Part shown: positions 1,653-62,727 of the stretch, piece by piece | How the letters are laid out: every line of letters starts with the position of its first letter | Position numbering within the stretch: the stretch's first letter is position 1 | Assembly: GCA_017463185.1 (NCBI GenBank) | Contig: JAFTPS010000014.1 | Location: 40,514-104,513 of the forward strand | Origin: Alphaproteobacteria bacterium | GTDB lineage: Bacteria > Pseudomonadota > Alphaproteobacteria > Rs-D84 | Length of the DNA: 64,000 bases | Direction of reading: 5' to 3' | Program-made: the position numbers and the translations under genes | Notes under the pieces: model-generated | Databases searched by the model: none | The model's input: only the letters and a program-made list of their open reading frames with translations | Told to the model about the DNA's origin: nothing

Positions 1653-1681
1653 TTGATTTTACATATCAAAATTTATACAAT
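1653..1681 (+). promoter_or_regulatory. Sigma70-like promoter TTGATT-17-TACAAT
   Basis: Hexamers at 1653..1658 and 1676..1681 with a 17-nt spacer. Same architecture as the promoter at 61745..61773. Confidence 0.5.
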
Positions 1682-1687
1682 AAAAAC

Positions 1688-1921
1688 TGAAACCATAGGG
1701 ATATGGCTTCGGGACCTTCAAAAGTCCAATATTCAAGGAGCGCACGCGATGTGTGCGTTGATATCCGCGTAATGCGGCGCATTTTGCGCTGCTTTTTATG
1801 ACCCCCGCGTTGTCGGGGTGCTGTGGGGCATATAACAGGGTTCGCCCGAAACCCCACAGGGTCATTTCCTTGAATATGATTTTTGAACACCCCGACCGCC
1901 AAATCTCTGGCGGTCTTTTTT
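1688..1921 (+). ncRNA. Structured 5' leader or sRNA, R-class copy R1, ending in a strong intrinsic terminator
   Basis: 5' hairpin CCATA-GGGA-TATGG followed by CTTCGGGACC (1693..1716). Long-range helix ATTCAAGGA (1731..1739) / TCCTTGAAT (1867..1875). Hairpin CCCCG/CGGGG (1803..1818). Terminator GACCGCC-N8-GGCGGTC-T6 (1894..1921), about 20 nt before the ATG at 1943. Homologous blocks occur at 61780..62009. Confidence 0.55.
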
Positions 1922-1942
1922 AAACTTAGGGGAATAAAATTT

Positions 1943-3163
1943 ATGAAAAAAACAATTGCGATATTTTTATTATCCATAACCACAGCCAATGCAGCCGAAC
2001 TGACCGTCAGCACATCTGTACGAGAAGCATGGGGCAATGCAGAAATGAATTATTGTGGCACAAACAATATTCCAGAGGCCTGTATAGGCGAAGCCGTTAA
2101 CAAAAATTGCGCCAATAAAAAAATTTACAGTGCCAGATATCAAAAAAAAGGTAAATACGATGATGAGTTTGCAAACCTAATAATGATGGCACGCGAAATA
2201 AATGAACACGGTGCATTATTCTGCCCAACACAGGCAGACGGCCAAAACAATGACCAGAAAGGATATACCGCATATTATGAACCCAACGGCAACGATAACT
2301 GTATATGGCTGTGTCAAGCAAAATGGACCGGCGACAGGTGCGCCACATCAACAGAAAATTTTACAGACGCCTGTAATATAGTTCCATTTACACGTAATGA
2401 TTATAACGATGTCACAGCGGTTCATGACATTCACAAAAAAGCCAAAAATAACATAGAAAATCAAATTGAATTTTTCTATATCAACGATTATCAAAAGTGT
2501 TCTTATAAAGACGATGATGGCGACATAAAATCTAAAGCAAGAAATGAACATGATATGGCATTGGTACTAACAAAATTCTTGACCAGTGGCAACGGTGCAT
2601 TTGCCCGTCAAATGATTATCCAATCCCACCGCACAGGAAAAAAATCTTCTGACATATTGATTTACCCAGCATCAAAAAGTATTGAAATACTGGTCTGTAA
2701 AAATGGTTACACACCAAATTTATCCAACACAGACTGTGAACCAATTGATAAAACTAAATGCGACATCGCAATTGCATCAACGAAAATGTGTATCGGCTGG
2801 TCATATTCCAATATGAATCCAGAAATTCACGAACTGACCGAATCAGACAACTGTTATAAATACAGATGTAAACAATCTGGCTATGCATTTAACAGCATAA
2901 CCGACCTATCATGTACTGAATGCCCCAGCAACAAGCGCAGCGGCATACACCCGCGAAATAACACCTGTACAAAATGCGAAACAGGAACTATGTTTAACAA
3001 ATCAACGGGCGAATGCGACAATAATGTTATCGGTTTAAGCAAAACAGATATGATGTATGGTCGCAACAAAACAAAAAATTCACAAAAAAAATTAAACGAC
3101 CAATGTTGGACACAGGCCAACGACCCAGACAAATATAAAAACTGTGTCCTGGGCAAAGAATAA
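1943..3163 (+). CDS. Secreted cysteine-rich protein (CxxGY..C / CxxCP repeats)
   Basis: Start trimmed to MKKTIAIFLLSITTANA (signal peptide, AGGGGA RBS). Many Cys, with repeats such as VCKNGYTPNLSNTDC and CTECPSNKRSG..CTKCETG. AT-rich coding sequence. Confidence 0.8.
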   Translation: MKKTIAIFLLSITTANAAELTVSTSVREAWGNAEMNYCGTNNIPEACIGEAVNKNCANKKIYSARYQKKGKYDDEFANLIMMAREINEHGALFCPTQADGQNNDQKGYTAYYEPNGNDNCIWLCQAKWTGDRCATSTENFTDACNIVPFTRNDYNDVTAVHDIHKKAKNNIENQIEFFYINDYQKCSYKDDDGDIKSKARNEHDMALVLTKFLTSGNGAFARQMIIQSHRTGKKSSDILIYPASKSIEILVCKNGYTPNLSNTDCEPIDKTKCDIAIASTKMCIGWSYSNMNPEIHELTESDNCYKYRCKQSGYAFNSITDLSCTECPSNKRSGIHPRNNTCTKCETGTMFNKSTGECDNNVIGLSKTDMMYGRNKTKNSQKKLNDQCWTQANDPDKYKNCVLGKE

Positions 3164-9336: not shown

Positions 9337-9442
9337 ATTCAGTAATTAGTATATTATAATACACAAAGCTGGACTATCGCGTTTCACTCGTAATGACAAT
9401 AATATATTTCTTCTACTTACCATTTAAAATGCTCTTTGAAAT

Positions 9443-9470
9443 AAAAAATCCCGCAATTGCGGGATTTTTT
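9443..9470. terminator. Palindromic terminator, family 2 (AAAAATCCCGCAAnnGCGGGATTTTT)
   Basis: AAAAAATCCCGCAATTGCGGGATTTTTT between convergent genes. Similar copies at 21018, 32093, 35535 and 40892. Confidence 0.8.
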
Positions 9471-9654
9471 ATTTCTTTTTCTTGGTATTTTTCTTGGGTT
9501 CTTTTTTCGTATCTTTTTTTGTTTCTTTAATTTCTTTCTTAAAGATGTTTATCCCATTGGCCAGGTTCTTCATCATAGCCGGGATTTTATTAGACCCAAA
9601 TAAAATCAGCACCAATATGATAATTAAAAGTATTTCAGTCCAACCTAATCTCAT
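9469..9654 (-). CDS. tatA: Twin-arginine translocase subunit TatA/E
   Basis: Start trimmed to MRLGWTEILLIIILVLILFGSNKIP (AGGGGG RBS). Lys-rich tail. Confidence 0.8.
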   Translation of the reverse strand: MRLGWTEILLIIILVLILFGSNKIPAMMKNLANGINIFKKEIKETKKDTKKEPKKNTKKKK

Positions 9655-21046: not shown

Positions 21047-22955
21047 ACATTAGTTTTTCCACAGCATTCAACGTAATGCCACTGGAATTTTTACAACTAT
21101 TTATATCTAATTTTATTTTCACTTTGCGACATGGCGCATAACGCAAATTATTGTCGTTATTATAGTTCGGATTTTTACCCACACATTGCCTGTAATCTAT
21201 ATCATTTTCTTTACCCGTTGGAACCGAACCACTGGCACAACTACACCATATCTCGCCAAAGCCTGAGGCGGTGCTTTCACTACTGATAACATTGCCATTT
21301 TTTGAGGCGGTTAAATAATCTTTTACTGCGTTGGCACGCTGTTCTGATAATGCTTGATTATACTTTTCACTGCCCGTACCATCCGTATACCCAACGATTT
21401 CCAATTTGCATTCCGAAGCACCCGCTTCTTTCAAAGCTGATACAAAAGTATCAAAAGAAGCCTCTGCGGACGGTGTTAAATCAGACTCACTTATTTCAAA
21501 TAACGAATCCGCCGGCAACTCTATTACTTTGATAACTGGCGTGGTCGCTGTCGTCGTAATTGACGTTCCCGACTTTTTCACACATTTTCCATCGCTATCA
21601 ATTGTATGTGTATCGTCATCACACGTGCACGATTGCATATCGCCGCTGATTGTAAATCCATCAATGCAATCACAATCGCAATTATTTTTTACAATCAAAT
21701 GACTGCCATCCGACGGGGTACATTTTGGCGTACACGTGTCCGGTTTTTCAATACACTTTTTCTGGTTCTCGTCCCACAATGGCACATTATCCGGACATTT
21801 GCACGCCCCCCCAACCACGGTCTGTTTATCCGCACACTTATCACACTGCATAGTATCTGTATTATAAATCGCATTACCACTGCATGTGCAATCCGGATGA
21901 TTTGTCCCCGTCGTACCCGATGGGCATTTTTTTACCGCGGGTTTTATTTCCTGAACATCTTTTTCCAGTTTTTCTGATATCTCTTCATACTTTTCATTTA
22001 TCTCGTCGCTGCGTTCCTTGGGCGCATTACGATTCAGAACGATATTTCCAACCGCGCTGCCAATTGCACCAACGGCCGCCAAAATCATACCCTGTTTTTT
22101 CTTGTCGGCGGTCTCTTTCTTTTGTTGTGCCCATGCGGCGGCATCCGCGGATGTATCGTCCATCAATGCACGCGCAACCGATGTGTATGCCCCGCCCGTC
22201 TTGCCGACCGCAACATCATCATACAGGCCAGATTCCGCCTTATCTAATACTACCTCGGCCTCTATCCCCGGGCGCATCCCCAGGGCTTCTTTACGAACTT
22301 TTAAATCTGCCGCCAATGCTTTGTATTCCGTCACCAGTGCCGTCAATTCATTCCCACCGGGTAATTCTATGCCCGTTTCGCCACCTTGAACATTTTTGCC
22401 ACCACCATAATTACATACAAATGTGGACAGGTATGCTTTCATATCGCGTTCGGCATCATCGTCTGCGGATTGTTCGGCTGACGCGGACATAGTCTGCATC
22501 AAACCAATCCCGGTCGCACCAATACCAACCGCACCCAACATTTTATTTGTGGTGGATTGTTCCTTTTCTTTCATTTTTTTGGCGTTATCTTTTAATTCGG
22601 CAATTTTCTTTTCTGAATCCGCCTTTGATAATTTTTTCTTTGCGCCGGATTTCGCCGTATCGGACGAATTATCATCGGAATCAGAATCTTCTTCGTCTGA
22701 TTCTTCATCATCTGATTCTTCTTCATCACCCTGCTCTTCATCTGTTTCTGTGGCATCTTCACCAGTATCATCGGTTTCCGTCCCGTCAGCCTCATCATCG
22801 GATGGCTCGTCCTGTCCGTCGCTCATATCACTATCACTGGACACACCACTATCGGTACTTTCATCCGTGACGGCAACCGCATCAAAAGACACAGAAACAA
22901 TCCCCGCCCCACCAATACACAGGCACATAACAAACATCATAAAAAATTTTAACAT
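21045..22955 (-). CDS. Chimeric surface protein: acidic region, glycine-zipper segments, EGF-like Cys-rich repeats, OmpA-like C-terminal domain
   Basis: Start trimmed to MLKFFMMFVMCLCIGG (GGGGAGAG RBS). D/E/S-rich for about 100 aa. CPSGTTG..CTCSG..CDKC..CKCP.. repeats. ..LEIVGYTDGTGSEKYNQALSEQRANAVKDYL is OmpA/MotB-like. Confidence 0.8.
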   Translation of the reverse strand: MLKFFMMFVMCLCIGGAGIVSVSFDAVAVTDESTDSGVSSDSDMSDGQDEPSDDEADGTETDDTGEDATETDEEQGDEEESDDEESDEEDSDSDDNSSDTAKSGAKKKLSKADSEKKIAELKDNAKKMKEKEQSTTNKMLGAVGIGATGIGLMQTMSASAEQSADDDAERDMKAYLSTFVCNYGGGKNVQGGETGIELPGGNELTALVTEYKALAADLKVRKEALGMRPGIEAEVVLDKAESGLYDDVAVGKTGGAYTSVARALMDDTSADAAAWAQQKKETADKKKQGMILAAVGAIGSAVGNIVLNRNAPKERSDEINEKYEEISEKLEKDVQEIKPAVKKCPSGTTGTNHPDCTCSGNAIYNTDTMQCDKCADKQTVVGGACKCPDNVPLWDENQKKCIEKPDTCTPKCTPSDGSHLIVKNNCDCDCIDGFTISGDMQSCTCDDDTHTIDSDGKCVKKSGTSITTTATTPVIKVIELPADSLFEISESDLTPSAEASFDTFVSALKEAGASECKLEIVGYTDGTGSEKYNQALSEQRANAVKDYLTASKNGNVISSESTASGFGEIWCSCASGSVPTGKENDIDYRQCVGKNPNYNNDNNLRYAPCRKVKIKLDINSCKNSSGITLNAVEKLM

Positions 22956-23163
22956 TGCGACTCTCCCCAATAACGAAGCGTTAAAAACAAAACCACCTGA
23001 TTCATTCAAGTGGCAGGAGATTCGTAACTATCTTAGCAGTAAATAGCATTGCGCTTTCAGTATATGACGCAATTCTCCTGCCTATTTGGACAGGAGTTTT
23101 TTTACGTTCCACGAACGCTGCTAAAACAAGGGTTACGAAGCCCAATACCCAATCCTGGGTATC
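22956..23163 (-). promoter_or_regulatory. Structured attenuator-like 5' leader, class-2 copy C
   Basis: P1 GGCAGGAGA (23012..23020) / TCTCCTGCC (23074..23082). P0 CTCCTG (23075..23080) / CAGGAG (23091..23096). Terminator-like CCAC..GTGG plus a T-run (22985..23013). Extended -10 TGtTATAGT at 23170..23178. Confidence 0.55.
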
Positions 23164-23208
23164 ACAGATACTATAACATTATTTTTTTATTTTAACTAGG
23201 ATAATTTT

Positions 23209-43195: not shown

Positions 43196-43249
43196 AGTCT
43201 GATTATAATCAAATGTTTTCATTTCCGCAAATACTTATATAAATAAAAG

Positions 43250-43334
43250 TTTAGTGGTTAGTGTTTAGTGGAGAGTAGAAGTACTATGATGTGCGGCATT
43301 CGCCGCACACCAAGACTCCCCACTAACCACTAAA
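43250..43334. repeat. 85-bp hairpin-forming element with 14-bp perfect inverted ends (TTTAGTGGTTAGTG)
   Basis: 43250..43263 is the exact reverse complement of 43321..43334. Inner hairpin GTGCGGCattcGCCGCAC. Confidence 0.7.
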
Positions 43335-43360
43335 AAATCCCCCAAACGGGGGATTTTTTT
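43332..43360. terminator. Palindromic terminator
   Basis: AAAAAATCCCCCaaaCGGGGGATTTTTTT. Overlaps the stop of the PAP2 gene. Confidence 0.8.
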
Positions 43361-44039
43361 ATTTCTTCATCAACTGCCATTTTACAATATCGGCAACAAC
43401 CATACCAATAAACGCCCCCAGAATTACATCCGTTGGCCAATGCGCGCCAATCGCAATTCGTGACACCCCAACAATAATCGCCAGTGTCCAGGTCAAAGCC
43501 TTGTACTTTGGCGCCAACATACCAATCATAACCAACCCTGCAAATGTGACCGCCGTATGTCCCGACGGCATAGAATTAAATGCCCATTCGGTTGATGGCG
43601 GAAAAAATCCAGTCATATCCAAGGCCTCAAAAAATATTGGACGGGCACGCCCGATAAACGTCTTTGATACCTTTACCACCAATCCCGTACACAAGATAGA
43701 GCAAAATATAAAAAACGCATAACTGCCCTTTATTTTTACATAAAAATCACGCAAAAACGCGACAAGACTAATCCGATTTCTGTCATTTCTGATTTTTGGT
43801 TTTGATACCAGTGATTTTTTTACATAAAAAACCATTACCGCGACCAGGCCTGCAAAAAACCATACTTTGTCATCAAAAACCACACCAAACCAATACCATA
43901 AATTACAATCTAATTTTCGCAACAATAAATACAGCGGCGCATCCCCCCACGAAATCCCAACCACCAATAAACACGCAACCACCAGGGCCGCAATTTTCAA
44001 TCGCCCCCACAGCATTTTATTATCAGTTGTTAAAAACAT
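43359..44039 (-). CDS. PAP2-family lipid phosphatase
   Basis: KTFIGRARP, PSGH and SRIAIGAHWPTD are the three PAP2 motifs. Multiple TM helices. Confidence 0.85.
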   Translation of the reverse strand: MFLTTDNKMLWGRLKIAALVVACLLVVGISWGDAPLYLLLRKLDCNLWYWFGVVFDDKVWFFAGLVAVMVFYVKKSLVSKPKIRNDRNRISLVAFLRDFYVKIKGSYAFFIFCSILCTGLVVKVSKTFIGRARPIFFEALDMTGFFPPSTEWAFNSMPSGHTAVTFAGLVMIGMLAPKYKALTWTLAIIVGVSRIAIGAHWPTDVILGAFIGMVVADIVKWQLMKK

Positions 44040-52884: not shown

Positions 52885-53388
52885 ATGATAAAAAAATGCG
52901 ACCACCCGGGTTGTACCAAGGCCGGAACATGCCGTGCACCCAAAACACGCGATTTGCGTGAATACTGGTTTTTCTGCACTGAACACGCCGCCGAATATAA
53001 CAAGAATTGGAATTACTATGCCGATATGACCCCCGATGAAATAGAGGCCGACTGGGAACGTCAAACTTTCGGCGCACCGTTAAAGGATAAAAATACGGCC
53101 AACACAGACGCAAACGATTATGCAAAATTTATAAATGATTTTATCACAGGTCGCAGTGCATTTGACCGCGTACCGGCAAAAAGCAAACTGCCCACCAATG
53201 TTGTATCCGCGTTAAAGGTATTTGACCTGGGGATTTCCGCCACCTGGCGCGATGTTGGCATTAAATATCGCGCATTAGCAAAAAAATACCACCCCGACAC
53301 CGCCACCGACAAGAAAAATGCAGCAACCGAATTTGCCCGCATTTCCACCGCATACGACATTTTGAAAAAACATTTCGGCAAAAAATAA
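52885..53388 (+). CDS. J-domain protein (C-terminal DnaJ domain, N-terminal Cys/His-rich region)
   Basis: ..YRALAKKYHPDTATDKK..FARISTAYDIL... N-terminal CDHPGCTKAGTCRAP..FFCTEH. Confidence 0.75.
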   Translation: MIKKCDHPGCTKAGTCRAPKTRDLREYWFFCTEHAAEYNKNWNYYADMTPDEIEADWERQTFGAPLKDKNTANTDANDYAKFINDFITGRSAFDRVPAKSKLPTNVVSALKVFDLGISATWRDVGIKYRALAKKYHPDTATDKKNAATEFARISTAYDILKKHFGKK

Positions 53389-53399
53389 AAATTGGGAAA

Positions 53400-53520
53400 A
53401 CGTGCCTGTGGCAATCATGGGCCATATATTGCATATTTACATCGCGGATAACAATTCGCACCGCGAACACTGTACCAAAACAAAGGACTTTCTGAGGCCC
53501 GAACCCACATCCCTATGGGC
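53400..53520 (-). ncRNA. Third, truncated copy (R3) of the R-class leader 5' module, with no downstream CDS
   Basis: The minus strand reads CCCATAGGGATGTGGGTTCGGGCC (53496..53519), versus CCATAGGGATATGGCTTCGGGACC (R1) and CCATAGGGATATGGGTTCGGGGC (R2). It also shares GGTGCGAAtT and TTATCCGCG blocks. No obvious promoter. Confidence 0.4.
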
Positions 53521-53529
53521 AATGTTTGC

Positions 53530-61744: not shown

Positions 61745-61773
61745 TTGATTCTGGAAAATCAAACTGATATAAT
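61745..61773 (+). promoter_or_regulatory. Consensus-like promoter TTGATT-17-TATAAT
   Basis: Hexamers at 61745..61750 and 61768..61773. Confidence 0.55.
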
Positions 61774-61779
61774 ACACTT

Positions 61780-62009
61780 GAATCCATAGGGATATGGGTT
61801 CGGGGCTGTAGCAAGCCTGTCTTATCCGGTGCGAAATCAGGTGCGTCGTTAATCCGATACACTGTCCATAATTTTGCATCGTTATTTATCCCTGACTTAA
61901 TAAGTCGGGGGGCTGTTCGCCATACAACAGGACTATTCCAAAAGCAACAGAATCAACGATAAGACGATTTGCTAACTCCCCGACCGTCATTCCTGTGGCG
62001 GTTATTTTT
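61780..62009 (+). ncRNA. Structured 5' leader or sRNA, R-class copy R2
   Basis: 5' module CCATAGGGATATGGGTTCGGGGC (61784..61806). Hairpin CCCTGACTT-aat-AAGTCGGGG (61890..61910). Conserved GCTGT..CATAnAACAGG block. Terminator GACCGTC-N8-GGCGGTT-ATTTTT (61982..62009), 20 nt before the ATG. Confidence 0.55.
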
Positions 62010-62028
62010 ATTATATTGGGGGGCCACA

Positions 62029-62727
62029 ATGAAGAAAATATTTATACCGCTATTATGCCTATCAACAATTGATGCAACGGCACACACAGAATTTACAAGA
62101 AAAGTTTCTGACATAAACTTTGCAATACGAAACCTGTGTACAGAAATGCAACTTTACGCCAATGAAAATAATTTAAGTATTATTGCTAACTCATCTAATA
62201 CTGAGTGGATTCCTTCTTCGCGTGAATTTAACTTAAACACCATTGATTGTAATAAGACCGAGCTTGCGGACCTTGTGTATCTAAACTTCGCATTTTCAAC
62301 CCTAATCCCAGAAGCAAAATCTGACAATACATCACCTGCAAAATCATCAACCAATCAATCAACCACAACAAATGATACAAACGATGAAATAATATATCTG
62401 GCTAAAAATTATTGCCGTTTATACAGAAATAGAGAAATCTCTTCAAAAACTGTTCAACAAGGATACAACAAAATAAAAACACAATATGCCGAATGCGAAA
62501 AAATAGACGACAAAAATTTACGTTGTGTTGAATCAACATTATTTTCAAACAAACAAAACCAAACACGAATGTATGGTAAATGTTGCTTGATACAAAACAA
62601 TGGAAAACAAAGCGACGGTGCTTACAGTATGTCTATGCCCCGCCACAGCCAACTTCATATGTTTAATAATTCAACACAAACAATGACACTTGATGATTTT
62701 GATACAAATTGCCAAAGCTTACGATAA
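62029..62727 (+). CDS. Secreted Asn/Thr-rich, Cys-containing protein (AT-rich gene)
   Basis: Start trimmed to MKKIFIPLLCLSTIDATA (GGGGGG RBS). 232 aa. No family recognised. Confidence 0.65.
   Translation: MKKIFIPLLCLSTIDATAHTEFTRKVSDINFAIRNLCTEMQLYANENNLSIIANSSNTEWIPSSREFNLNTIDCNKTELADLVYLNFAFSTLIPEAKSDNTSPAKSSTNQSTTTNDTNDEIIYLAKNYCRLYRNREISSKTVQQGYNKIKTQYAECEKIDDKNLRCVESTLFSNKQNQTRMYGKCCLIQNNGKQSDGAYSMSMPRHSQLHMFNNSTQTMTLDDFDTNCQSLR

Follow-up and report, generated by a model that had tools for sequence, protein, structure and literature searches.

The C4 antisense RNA of the immI operon of phages P1 and P7, with its a1/b1 and a2/b2 targets, is listed in Rfam as RF01695 and RF03163 (clan CL00128; Citron & Schuster 1990, cited in PMC8198154). 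Acting through a2/b2, C4 blocks translation of icd and secondarily affects transcription of ant, and the annotation of the phage P1 record runs in the order promoter, a1, b1, c4, a2, b2, icd, ant. IsrK of Salmonella Gifsy-1 (RF01394) is a short RNA that covers an a1b1 region plus a terminator, before an anti-repressor operon. A further small RNA (sRNA), sRNA-Xcc1 (RF02221), which Rfam classes as a stand-alone sRNA and does not place in the C4 clan, is a discrete 88-nt species on Northern blots in Xanthomonas (PMC2996969), and lies upstream of symE in Xanthomonas integron cassettes (10.1101/2025.06.18.660453) and of an ORF6N protein in an APSE phage (10.1101/2020.03.17.996009). Here we describe R1, a leader RNA in a stretch of 64,000 nt (the window, within which all positions are numbered) of contig JAFTPS010000014.1, assembly GCA_017463185.1, from the Enterousia lineage, that is, order Rs-D84, with genomes of about 0.75–1.0 Mb (PMC12306168). 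R1 is a real, strongly conserved, structured RNA leader of 255 nt, present in multiple copies ahead of genes for secreted and surface proteins in Candidatus Enterousia, and is a lineage-specific form of the C4/Xcc1 type of antisense-RNA cassette, placed as a 5′ leader before exported-protein genes.

Results

R1 is a conserved, multi-copy leader ahead of exported-protein genes

R1 sits on the chromosome, flanked by recF and a gene for a Cys-rich secreted protein; all its features are on the plus strand. An initial annotation of the window had placed here a promoter, a 5′ hairpin, a long helix, three short segments (B, C and D), a terminator and a start codon, and all of them can be read from the sequence at the positions given. 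The promoter is of sigma-70 type, with a −35 TTGATT at 1653–1658 and, after a 17-nt spacer, a −10 TACAAT at 1676–1681; a promoter scan also detected it, with a match of 9/12. Across 65 distinct upstream regions of the family, a −35 (TTkACa), a 17-nt spacer, an extended −10 TG and a −10 (TAnAnT) occupy fixed positions, and the start of transcription was thus placed at G1689, the first base of the 5′ hairpin. The minimum free energy (MFE) of 1688–1945 is −103.1 kcal/mol, compared with −75.6 ± 5.1 kcal/mol in dinucleotide shuffles (z −5.4, 0/200).

The 21-nt 5′ motif CCATAGGGATRTGGNTTCGGG occurs three times in the window, with 0.02 occurrences expected. In a collection of species-representative genomes it retrieved 93 loci, nearly all in Candidatus Enterousia or gut alphaproteobacterial metagenome-assembled genomes (MAGs), with at most five loci per MAG; 75 of the retrieved loci were of the R1/R2 type, and 71 distinct sequences were aligned after removal of duplicates. 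R2, the second copy of this type (type A) in the window (61745–62030, plus strand), stands ahead of an open reading frame (ORF) of 232 aa with a signal peptide (ATG at 62030). It scores 90 bits on a covariance model of the 3′ domain and carries, as the initial annotation had stated, the same GUCGGGG/CCCCGAC/terminator arrangement as R1.

The leader family as a whole stayed below the Rfam 15 gathering score of every family, as did R1 itself, and no Rfam riboswitch matched the R1 leader. Elsewhere in the window, weak matches to the Phe, Leu and Thr leader families (28–36 bits, far below thresholds) were seen at 43236–43363 (plus strand) and 9416–9490; they sit on terminator-rich spacers with bidirectional terminators (AAAAAATCCC...GGGATTTTTT) and are probably spurious. 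Leader copies were also sought in mobile DNA: the motif was absent from 2.9 million viral contigs, and blastn gave no match in 72,556 plasmid records and only chance 30-nt matches in 50,697 phage records. With no match beyond chance in any of these, we rejected a mobile-element or phage origin of the present copies. Three leader-bearing contigs (L052, L076 and L069) are binned in MAGs labelled Muribaculaceae and Acutalibacteraceae; they are probably binning contaminants, since the leader is otherwise strictly confined to Enterousia-like genomes.

Downstream of R1, a ribosome-binding site (AGGGGA, 1928–1933) precedes the ATG at 1943 of an ORF of 406 aa (1943–3163) with signal peptide MKKTIAIFLLSITTANA and 22 Cys, which matches no Pfam family at its threshold. 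In nearly all copies the ATG follows CCCCGAC by 45–58 nt and lies about 20–30 nt beyond the terminator, so close behind it that there is no room for a promoter of the gene's own; given this short and fixed distance, the ORF depends on read-through of the leader. Hydrophobic N-termini (signal peptide, lipobox or membrane segment) were found in 49 of 55 downstream ORFs, versus 36% of background ORFs (p = 1e-13). The ORFs are otherwise unrelated to each other: Pfam recognised two autotransporter beta-domains and little else, and the genes include autotransporters, lipoproteins and proteins of unknown family, and no anti-repressor. In one MAG, OH_HBB_125 (L010, L075 and L090), the terminator is followed by further conserved sequence (UUUUCAUUGGGAAAC...) and not by an ORF; the same MAG holds a copy of the second leader class described below (L010, 5975–5760, minus strand).

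Both alternative partners of segment C covary

The leader opens with hairpin P1 (GAAACCAUA-GGGA-UAUGGCUUC, GNRA loop, 1689–1710), which is paired in the MFE fold, with CCAUA-GGGA-UAUGG nested within it at 1693–1706 and GGGACC next. P1 is 99.4% paired in the 71 copies and almost invariant, so its covariation says little, and since its motif formed part of the database search pattern, its presence in the copies was required. A resemblance of P1 to CsrA-type GGA hairpins was set aside, as GGA is not in all 5′ hairpins of the other leader classes. The small hairpin P2a (GGAC/GUCC, 1712–1727; 92% paired, compensatory changes at two pairs) presents the loop CUUCAAAA (L), whose partner at 1882–1886 gives the pairing PK. 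It is followed by AAUAUUCAAGGA (1728–1739), the 5′ strand of helix P2b, with its partner at 1867–1877; here AUUCAAGGA at 1731–1739 faces UCCUUGAAU at 1867–1875. Hairpin P3 (1740–1758), present in the MFE fold, is 97% paired with four of five pairs covarying. The terminator scan then found an internal terminator-like hairpin, P4/T1 (GCGGCGCAUUUUGCGCUGC and UUUUU, 1774–1797), whose position matches that of the hairpin and U-run after a1b1 in phage Xcc1 loci and in phage P1; judged from the sequence, T1 could give an RNA of about 110 nt. Most other copies have a weaker U-run after their T1 equivalent (UGAUUUAU).

Segment B (CCCCG, 1803–1807) is the local partner of segment C (GUCGGGGUG, 1812–1820, with GUCGGGG at 1812–1818), and segment D (CACCCCGAC, 1888–1896, with CCCCGAC at 1890–1896) is its distal partner. 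Between C and D lie hairpin P6 (CUGUGGGG/CCCCACAG, 1821–1859), with a conserved internal loop (CAUAUAACA ... GAAA) around an inner GGG-UUCG-CCC hairpin, hairpin P7 (GGUCA/UGAUU, 1860–1881), whose loop (1865–1876) is the 3′ strand of P2b, and the junction strand J/L′ (UUUGAA, 1882–1887), the partner of the P2a loop. The intrinsic terminator T2, also detected by the terminator scan, spans 1894–1921 (GACCGCC 1894–1900, an 8-nt loop, GGCGGUC 1909–1915, U6 1916–1921). As had been noted initially, the distal site overlaps its 5′ arm: the last three bases of D, GAC at 1894–1896, are the first three of the terminator stem.

On the 71-copy alignment, RNAalifold predicted 54 pairs, 32 of them with compensatory changes. 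The curated structure has 95.4% of its cells paired and 34 of 59 pairs changed on both sides, counts of covarying cells from related genomes and not of independent events; its covariation score is 0.344, versus 0.148 in shuffles (0/500) and 0.04–0.07 when partners were slid by 1–3 columns. Covariation was strongest in the two long-range helices. PK (1718–1722 with 1882–1886) is 98% paired, and four of its five pairs covary in 30–47 of the 71 copies; P2b (1729–1739 with 1867–1877) has compensatory changes at all eight aligned pairs, with both sides changed in 9–44 copies. P6 is 94–99% paired with nine of ten pairs covarying, and T2 is 99% paired with compensatory change at three pairs. Unpaired nucleotides are near-invariant, while all helices drift by compensatory change. 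RNAalifold also paired GGG 1711–1713 with CCC 1891–1893; we rejected this pairing, which has no independent covariation and competes with P2a, which does covary.

The claim that GUCGGGG has two alternative partners was borne out, as both helices covary. B:C is 91.5% paired with compensatory changes at four pairs. The fold with a three-way junction (C:D together with P7, 1860–1864 with 1877–1881) is 97% paired; within it C:D is 99.4% paired, its three outer pairs covarying in 7–9 copies each, P6 and its inner hairpin covary too, and P7 is 95.9% paired in type-A copies and covaries across leader classes (AUUCA/UGAAU, AGUUC/GAACU, GCUAU/AUAGU). In other leader classes B, C and D change jointly (CUCCUGUC/GGCAGGAG/CUCCUGCC and CCAAUCC/GGUUGGAGG/CCUCCAACC), which gives independent support for both pairings of C. 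The two pairings are mutually exclusive; P7 and P2b, by reasoning, cannot both be complete either, because they have U1877 in common and no linker between them. Since both folds covary and exclude each other, both appear to be under selection, and this covariation of both alternative helices is the best computational support obtainable for a switch. Compared with a fold in which C:D is enforced, the nested closed fold (P2b, B:C and terminator) is more stable by 15–23 kcal/mol, and termination is therefore expected by default.

The terminator hairpin has a median ΔG of −12.5 kcal/mol, and at least five T fall within the next 9 nt in 68 of the 71 copies. Four-T runs are less regular: none begins within 2 nt of the stem in 41 copies, one begins 3–5 nt after the stem in 37, and none is found in the first 12 nt in seven.

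Kinship of the R1 3′ half with sRNA-Xcc1

In E-value mode, RF02221 aligned over its full length (model positions 1–87) to R1 1812–1904 at 40.9 bits, under its gathering score of 53; R2 (28.2 bits) and the loci L010 (43.2), L006 (38.4) and L018 (31.8) also remained under that score, and genuine Xcc1 RNAs from plasmids and temperate phages reach 63–78 bits. The likeness is reciprocal, since a covariance model built from 48 Enterousia 3′ domains matches the genuine Xcc1 RNAs L094, L096 and L095 at 48.4, 34.7 and 31.1 bits (E 1e-10 to 2e-6). Judged by these alignments, the 3′ half of R1 is a divergent relative of sRNA-Xcc1. The initial annotation had named an Rfam match to a known RNA as grounds against its reading; what was found lies halfway, a reciprocal match of 1812–1904 to sRNA-Xcc1 that does not reach the gathering score.

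R1 and sRNA-Xcc1 share a three-way junction with a 9-bp closing stem (GUCGGGnnn/nnnCCCGAC), of which segment C is the 5′ strand in the Xcc1 alignment. Both have a first hairpin with an AUAYAAnA ... GAA internal loop around a small GC hairpin (the P6 loop motif AUAYAAnA...GAA being common to genuine Xcc1 RNAs), a second hairpin with a large variable loop, and a U-rich junction strand ending in AAC. In both, an ORF begins 40–50 nt downstream, and a small hairpin on the upstream side offers a loop and an adjacent strand that complement the junction strand and the second hairpin loop; a B:C-type hairpin just 5′ of the stem is often present in genuine Xcc1 too. The two differ in setting, as genuine Xcc1 RNAs are found in phages, plasmids and integron cassettes before anti-repressor, BRO or symE-type genes, whereas R1 is chromosomal and precedes an exported-protein gene. 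Genuine Xcc1 has a second copy of the target at the Shine-Dalgarno flank and R1 has none; R1 alone has an intrinsic terminator fused to the stem and an extra 5′ hairpin. After D, several phage Xcc1 RNAs carry an RCCA tail, where R1 has CGCC.

The layout of Xcc1 loci is our own reading of seven genuine loci (L094–L100, plasmid and phage), and its Shine-Dalgarno criterion is not a published one. These loci stand 40–50 nt upstream of an ORF, which where annotated encodes an anti-repressor (Ant), a BRO family protein or a hypothetical protein. In all seven the P7 loop is complementary to the downstream Shine-Dalgarno flank (−10.4 kcal/mol, versus −5.4 ± 1.5 kcal/mol for non-cognate pairs). Upstream of Xcc1 lies a small hairpin, GAGG-yGUCGAAA-CCUC, with a loop complementary to the junction strand; next come a second copy of the hairpin-loop complement and a hairpin with a U-run, in this order. 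This a1 b1–RNA–a2 b2 layout, together with the anti-repressor and BRO genes directly downstream and the complementarity in seven of seven loci, suggests on sequence grounds that Xcc1 is a C4-type immunity RNA. A possible identity of R1 with an IS110/IS1111 bridge or seek RNA was dropped, as among the papers searched none on seekRNAs, bridge RNAs, IS110 or IS1111 also mentions sRNA-Xcc1, and no transposase gene is adjacent.

The layout of R1 parallels the C4 cassette

In phage P1 (L101), Rfam recognised C4 and c4-a1b1 at 68.8 and 51 bits; there, a1, located in a hairpin loop, has its match in the junction strand, and b1 has its own in the loop of the second hairpin. R1 has the same order (promoter, a1 in a hairpin loop, b1, hairpin with U-run, long-stem RNA with two hairpins, gene) and the same pairing geometry, and it shares with the C4 precursor a B:C-like alternative hairpin. 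By this comparison, the P2a loop would be the equivalent of a1, the P2b 5′ strand of b1, the junction strand of a′, the P7 loop of b′, and C:D of the antisense closing stem. The initial annotation had singled out a long helix and an antiterminator as marks of an attenuator. Both are present, and neither is specific to attenuators, as they equal the a1b1:a′b′ pairing and the C4/Xcc1 closing stem, which lack a terminator in phages. In R1 the hairpin that follows D has turned into a good intrinsic terminator, and GAC belongs both to D and to this terminator.

The 5′ half of R1 up to T1, and the R3-type loci described below, resemble IsrK, for which Rfam gave no match within the window. In phage P1 the Rfam isrK model overlaps a1b1 at 35 bits (gathering score 50), and in phage phi330, which carries a true C4 before one anti-repressor gene and an Xcc1 before another, an isrK match cut off by the locus edge adjoins the C4 RNA at 49.6 bits, just under the gathering score.

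R1 is also like leaders with a terminator and an antiterminator (classical attenuators and "ON" riboswitches, for instance the pbuE adenine riboswitch): it has its own promoter and a structured promoter-proximal leader, an intrinsic terminator just before the ribosome-binding site with which the closing stem of the three-way junction may compete, and a third segment that can sequester the antiterminator strand. R1 is unlike them in having no conserved leader peptide, no known ligand, a terminator overlap of 3 nt and, as its "anti-aptamer", a 20-nt, copy-variable strand 130 nt upstream. Attenuation by a leader peptide was rejected, the sole ORF inside the R1 leader (1798–1923) being absent from R2 and relatives.

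A second leader class, stand-alone 5′ halves and address variants

The covariance model of the 3′ domain detected three more elements in the window, all on the minus strand, at 23083–23007, 13487–13418 and 43099–43016. They belong to leaders at 23190–22955, 13650–13366 and 43250–42965 (ATGs at 22954, 13367 and 42965), presumably the class-2 leaders of the initial annotation, whose statement that a second class in the window follows the same logic thus held. Each has a promoter-like region, a 5′ hairpin, P2a, loop and strand complements, matched B/C/D segments of different sequence, a terminator, a ribosome-binding site and a signal-peptide ORF, and all three have a three-way junction without the inner P6 hairpin. 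The P2a loop UGUCGAAA of the 13.6-kb copy matches GUCGAAA in the corresponding loop of three phage Xcc1 loci. Further leader variants exist in other MAGs.

R3 (53388–53524, minus strand) holds only the 5′ part of R1/R2: P1 with GAUGUGG, UUCGGG, P2a and CAGUGYUCGC...GCGAAU...UAUCCGC. It ends in AACAGGCACnUUUUCCCA, has no B, C, D or terminator, and extends into a convergent J-domain ORF at the 3′ end of that ORF. Loci of this type were seen in 12 other MAGs, apparently one per genome. Most are preceded by a conserved TTGCAAACAATGC box and a plausible −10; the copy in the window is without the approximately 35 nt between this box and the hairpin. RNAalifold recovered P1 and P2a only, with no compensatory changes, from the R3-type alignment, and no partner for the a1/b1-like strands of R3 was found within the window. 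R3 may be a stand-alone RNA of the a1b1 type, like IsrK.

The variable strands are copy-specific, with a duplex of −16.3 kcal/mol within the same leader versus −5.1 kcal/mol with other copies of the same genome. We did not retain selection for unique addresses per genome, as all 31 copies in 12 genomes are unique and random assortment accounts for this (P = 0.33, not significant). The commonest variant (a1 AUCUCAA with b1 AGCGUAUU; 12 of 71 copies, for example L003, L012, L014, L034, L044, L047, L063 and L082) heads different ORFs in different genomes, and a1 and b1 variants recur in different combinations, which points either to recombination inside the conserved leader or to gene cassettes being shuffled behind it.

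Discussion

We propose, with a probability of roughly 0.55, that R1 is a chromosomal derivative of a phage antisense-RNA cassette of the P1 C4/sRNA-Xcc1 type, which became a lineage-specific, multi-copy 5′ leader under two-state control of read-through. Transcription from G1689 would yield in turn the 5′ hairpin, the a1-loop hairpin, the b1 strand, two hairpins (the second with a U-run), B, the Xcc1-type junction and the terminator, with the ribosome-binding site of the exported-protein gene about 10–20 nt beyond. In the closed fold, predicted to be the default, a1/b1 would pair with the junction strand and the P7 loop and C with B, leaving D free, so that the terminator forms, a terminated RNA of about 230 nt is released and the gene is off. 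In the open fold, P7 and C:D would form the three-way junction and occupy the GAC of the terminator, and more polymerases would read through; read-through would thus be set by the balance between the two folds. By analogy with C4, whose RNA is processed by RNase P, this balance may be shifted by competition from RNAs with matching addresses or by processing 5′ of C rather than by a metabolite; an RNA–RNA trigger is favoured because the scaffold derives from an RNA–RNA system. In view of the near-invariant unpaired nucleotides, a common protein or ligand is still a candidate.

Several points weigh against this proposal. R1 stays below the Rfam gathering score for Xcc1, and the Rfam models C4 and c4-a1b1 gave no match to R1 at E ≤ 10 (1500–2100) or in the whole window at E ≤ 1; conversely, the Enterousia model scores P1 c4 at only 6 bits, leaving no detectable sequence similarity between R1 and C4. 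C4 acts through a2/b2, and no a2/b2 target near the start codon is visible in R1 1897–1960: variable strands of Enterousia leaders pair with their own translation-start region no better than with others (−5.2 vs −5.7 kcal/mol, no enrichment), and the known output of C4, translational repression, therefore cannot apply. The relatedness of the genomes behind the covariation counts belongs here as well. Moreover, the alternative between B:C and C:D is also predicted in the P1 c4 precursor and in 4–5 of the 7 phage Xcc1 loci, with no terminator after D, and hence did not evolve for attenuation but predates the terminator. Finally, G1894, A1895 and C1896 are the only bases of the 7-bp terminator stem that C:D takes up; the terminator could displace C:D from these three, and C:D may be a weak antiterminator. 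As the antiterminator thus covers three of the seven stem bases, the attenuation logic of the initial annotation is plausible and not secure.

A different trigger would be a small molecule or protein that binds the conserved junction (the P6 loop AUAYAACA...GAAA and the junction strands), stabilises C:D and induces an exported-protein regulon. Near-invariant unpaired nucleotides amid drifting helices, and the same core before many unrelated exported-protein genes, are what such a sensor would leave, and the copy-specific a1b1 strands rule out a common RNA regulator at that site, so that a shared factor would need the conserved core. We nevertheless consider it rather unlikely, as the core is homologous to phage antisense RNAs with RNA partners, the 15–23 kcal/mol lead of the closed fold exceeds the usual energy of ligand binding, the terminator overlap is just 3 nt, and no candidate ligand or protein has emerged. 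The locus could instead be mainly an sRNA gene, making a stable trans-acting RNA of about 230 nt, perhaps cut in two, with about 110 nt for the a1b1 half and about 90–110 nt for the C4-like half, and with the ORF expressed by constitutive leak-through as icd and ant are behind P1 c4. The good terminator in most copies, the internal T1, the R3-type loci that consist of the 5′ half without a downstream gene, and the discrete 88-nt Northern species of sRNA-Xcc1 (PMC2996969) would fit. Set against this, the ORF lacks a separate promoter and in nearly every copy starts a short, constant distance beyond the terminator. No trans target was found either: the variable strands did not match other leaders in their genome or the translation-start region of their own gene. 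This possibility is in our view an unlikely one.

Two further explanations dispense with switching altogether. A hairpin at the extreme 5′ end is a known mRNA stabiliser, as in the ompA leader, so that R1 might be a passive 5′ untranslated region in which a strong promoter and a stabilising leader were copied before highly expressed envelope genes and the "terminator" is just structural; the 41 copies without a four-T run starting within 2 nt of the stem agree with it. However, a static scaffold would have no need to keep two exclusive helices, as is done here by compensatory change across several leader classes, and we regard this as very unlikely. Least credible of all is that the leaders are inert remnants of prophage immunity or of repeats, with no host function. 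Homology to a phage cassette and the finding of the same leader variant before different genes in different genomes speak for such an origin, but the absence of matches in the viral, phage and plasmid records, the lack of an anti-repressor gene downstream, the fixed register with promoter and start codon, and the strong purifying selection and covariation across about 60 MAGs contradict it.

If the two-state model is true, R1 would represent reuse by the host of a phage antisense scaffold whose output had shifted from translational repression to transcription termination. The C4 layout also gives sRNA-Xcc1, filed as a trans-acting sRNA of unknown mechanism, a mechanism that can be tested. About 60 MAGs of an uncultured gut lineage with reduced genomes carry the family, with several copies per genome, and the autotransporter, lipoprotein and exported-protein genes behind the leaders are a likely interface with host or partner cells. 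More speculatively, and in our view improbably, Candidatus Enterousia may have domesticated a phage immunity cassette as an RNA-only control of its surface and secreted proteome, an addressable RNA–RNA network built on private two-part addresses (a1 and b1, paired with a′ and b′) that come from a limited pool of recombining variants. The read-through of a given gene would depend on the RNA products of its own leader, or on leaders and stand-alone a1b1 RNAs of the R3 type with one address module in common. Such a network, if true, would be analogous to phage heteroimmunity, used for the regulation of host genes.

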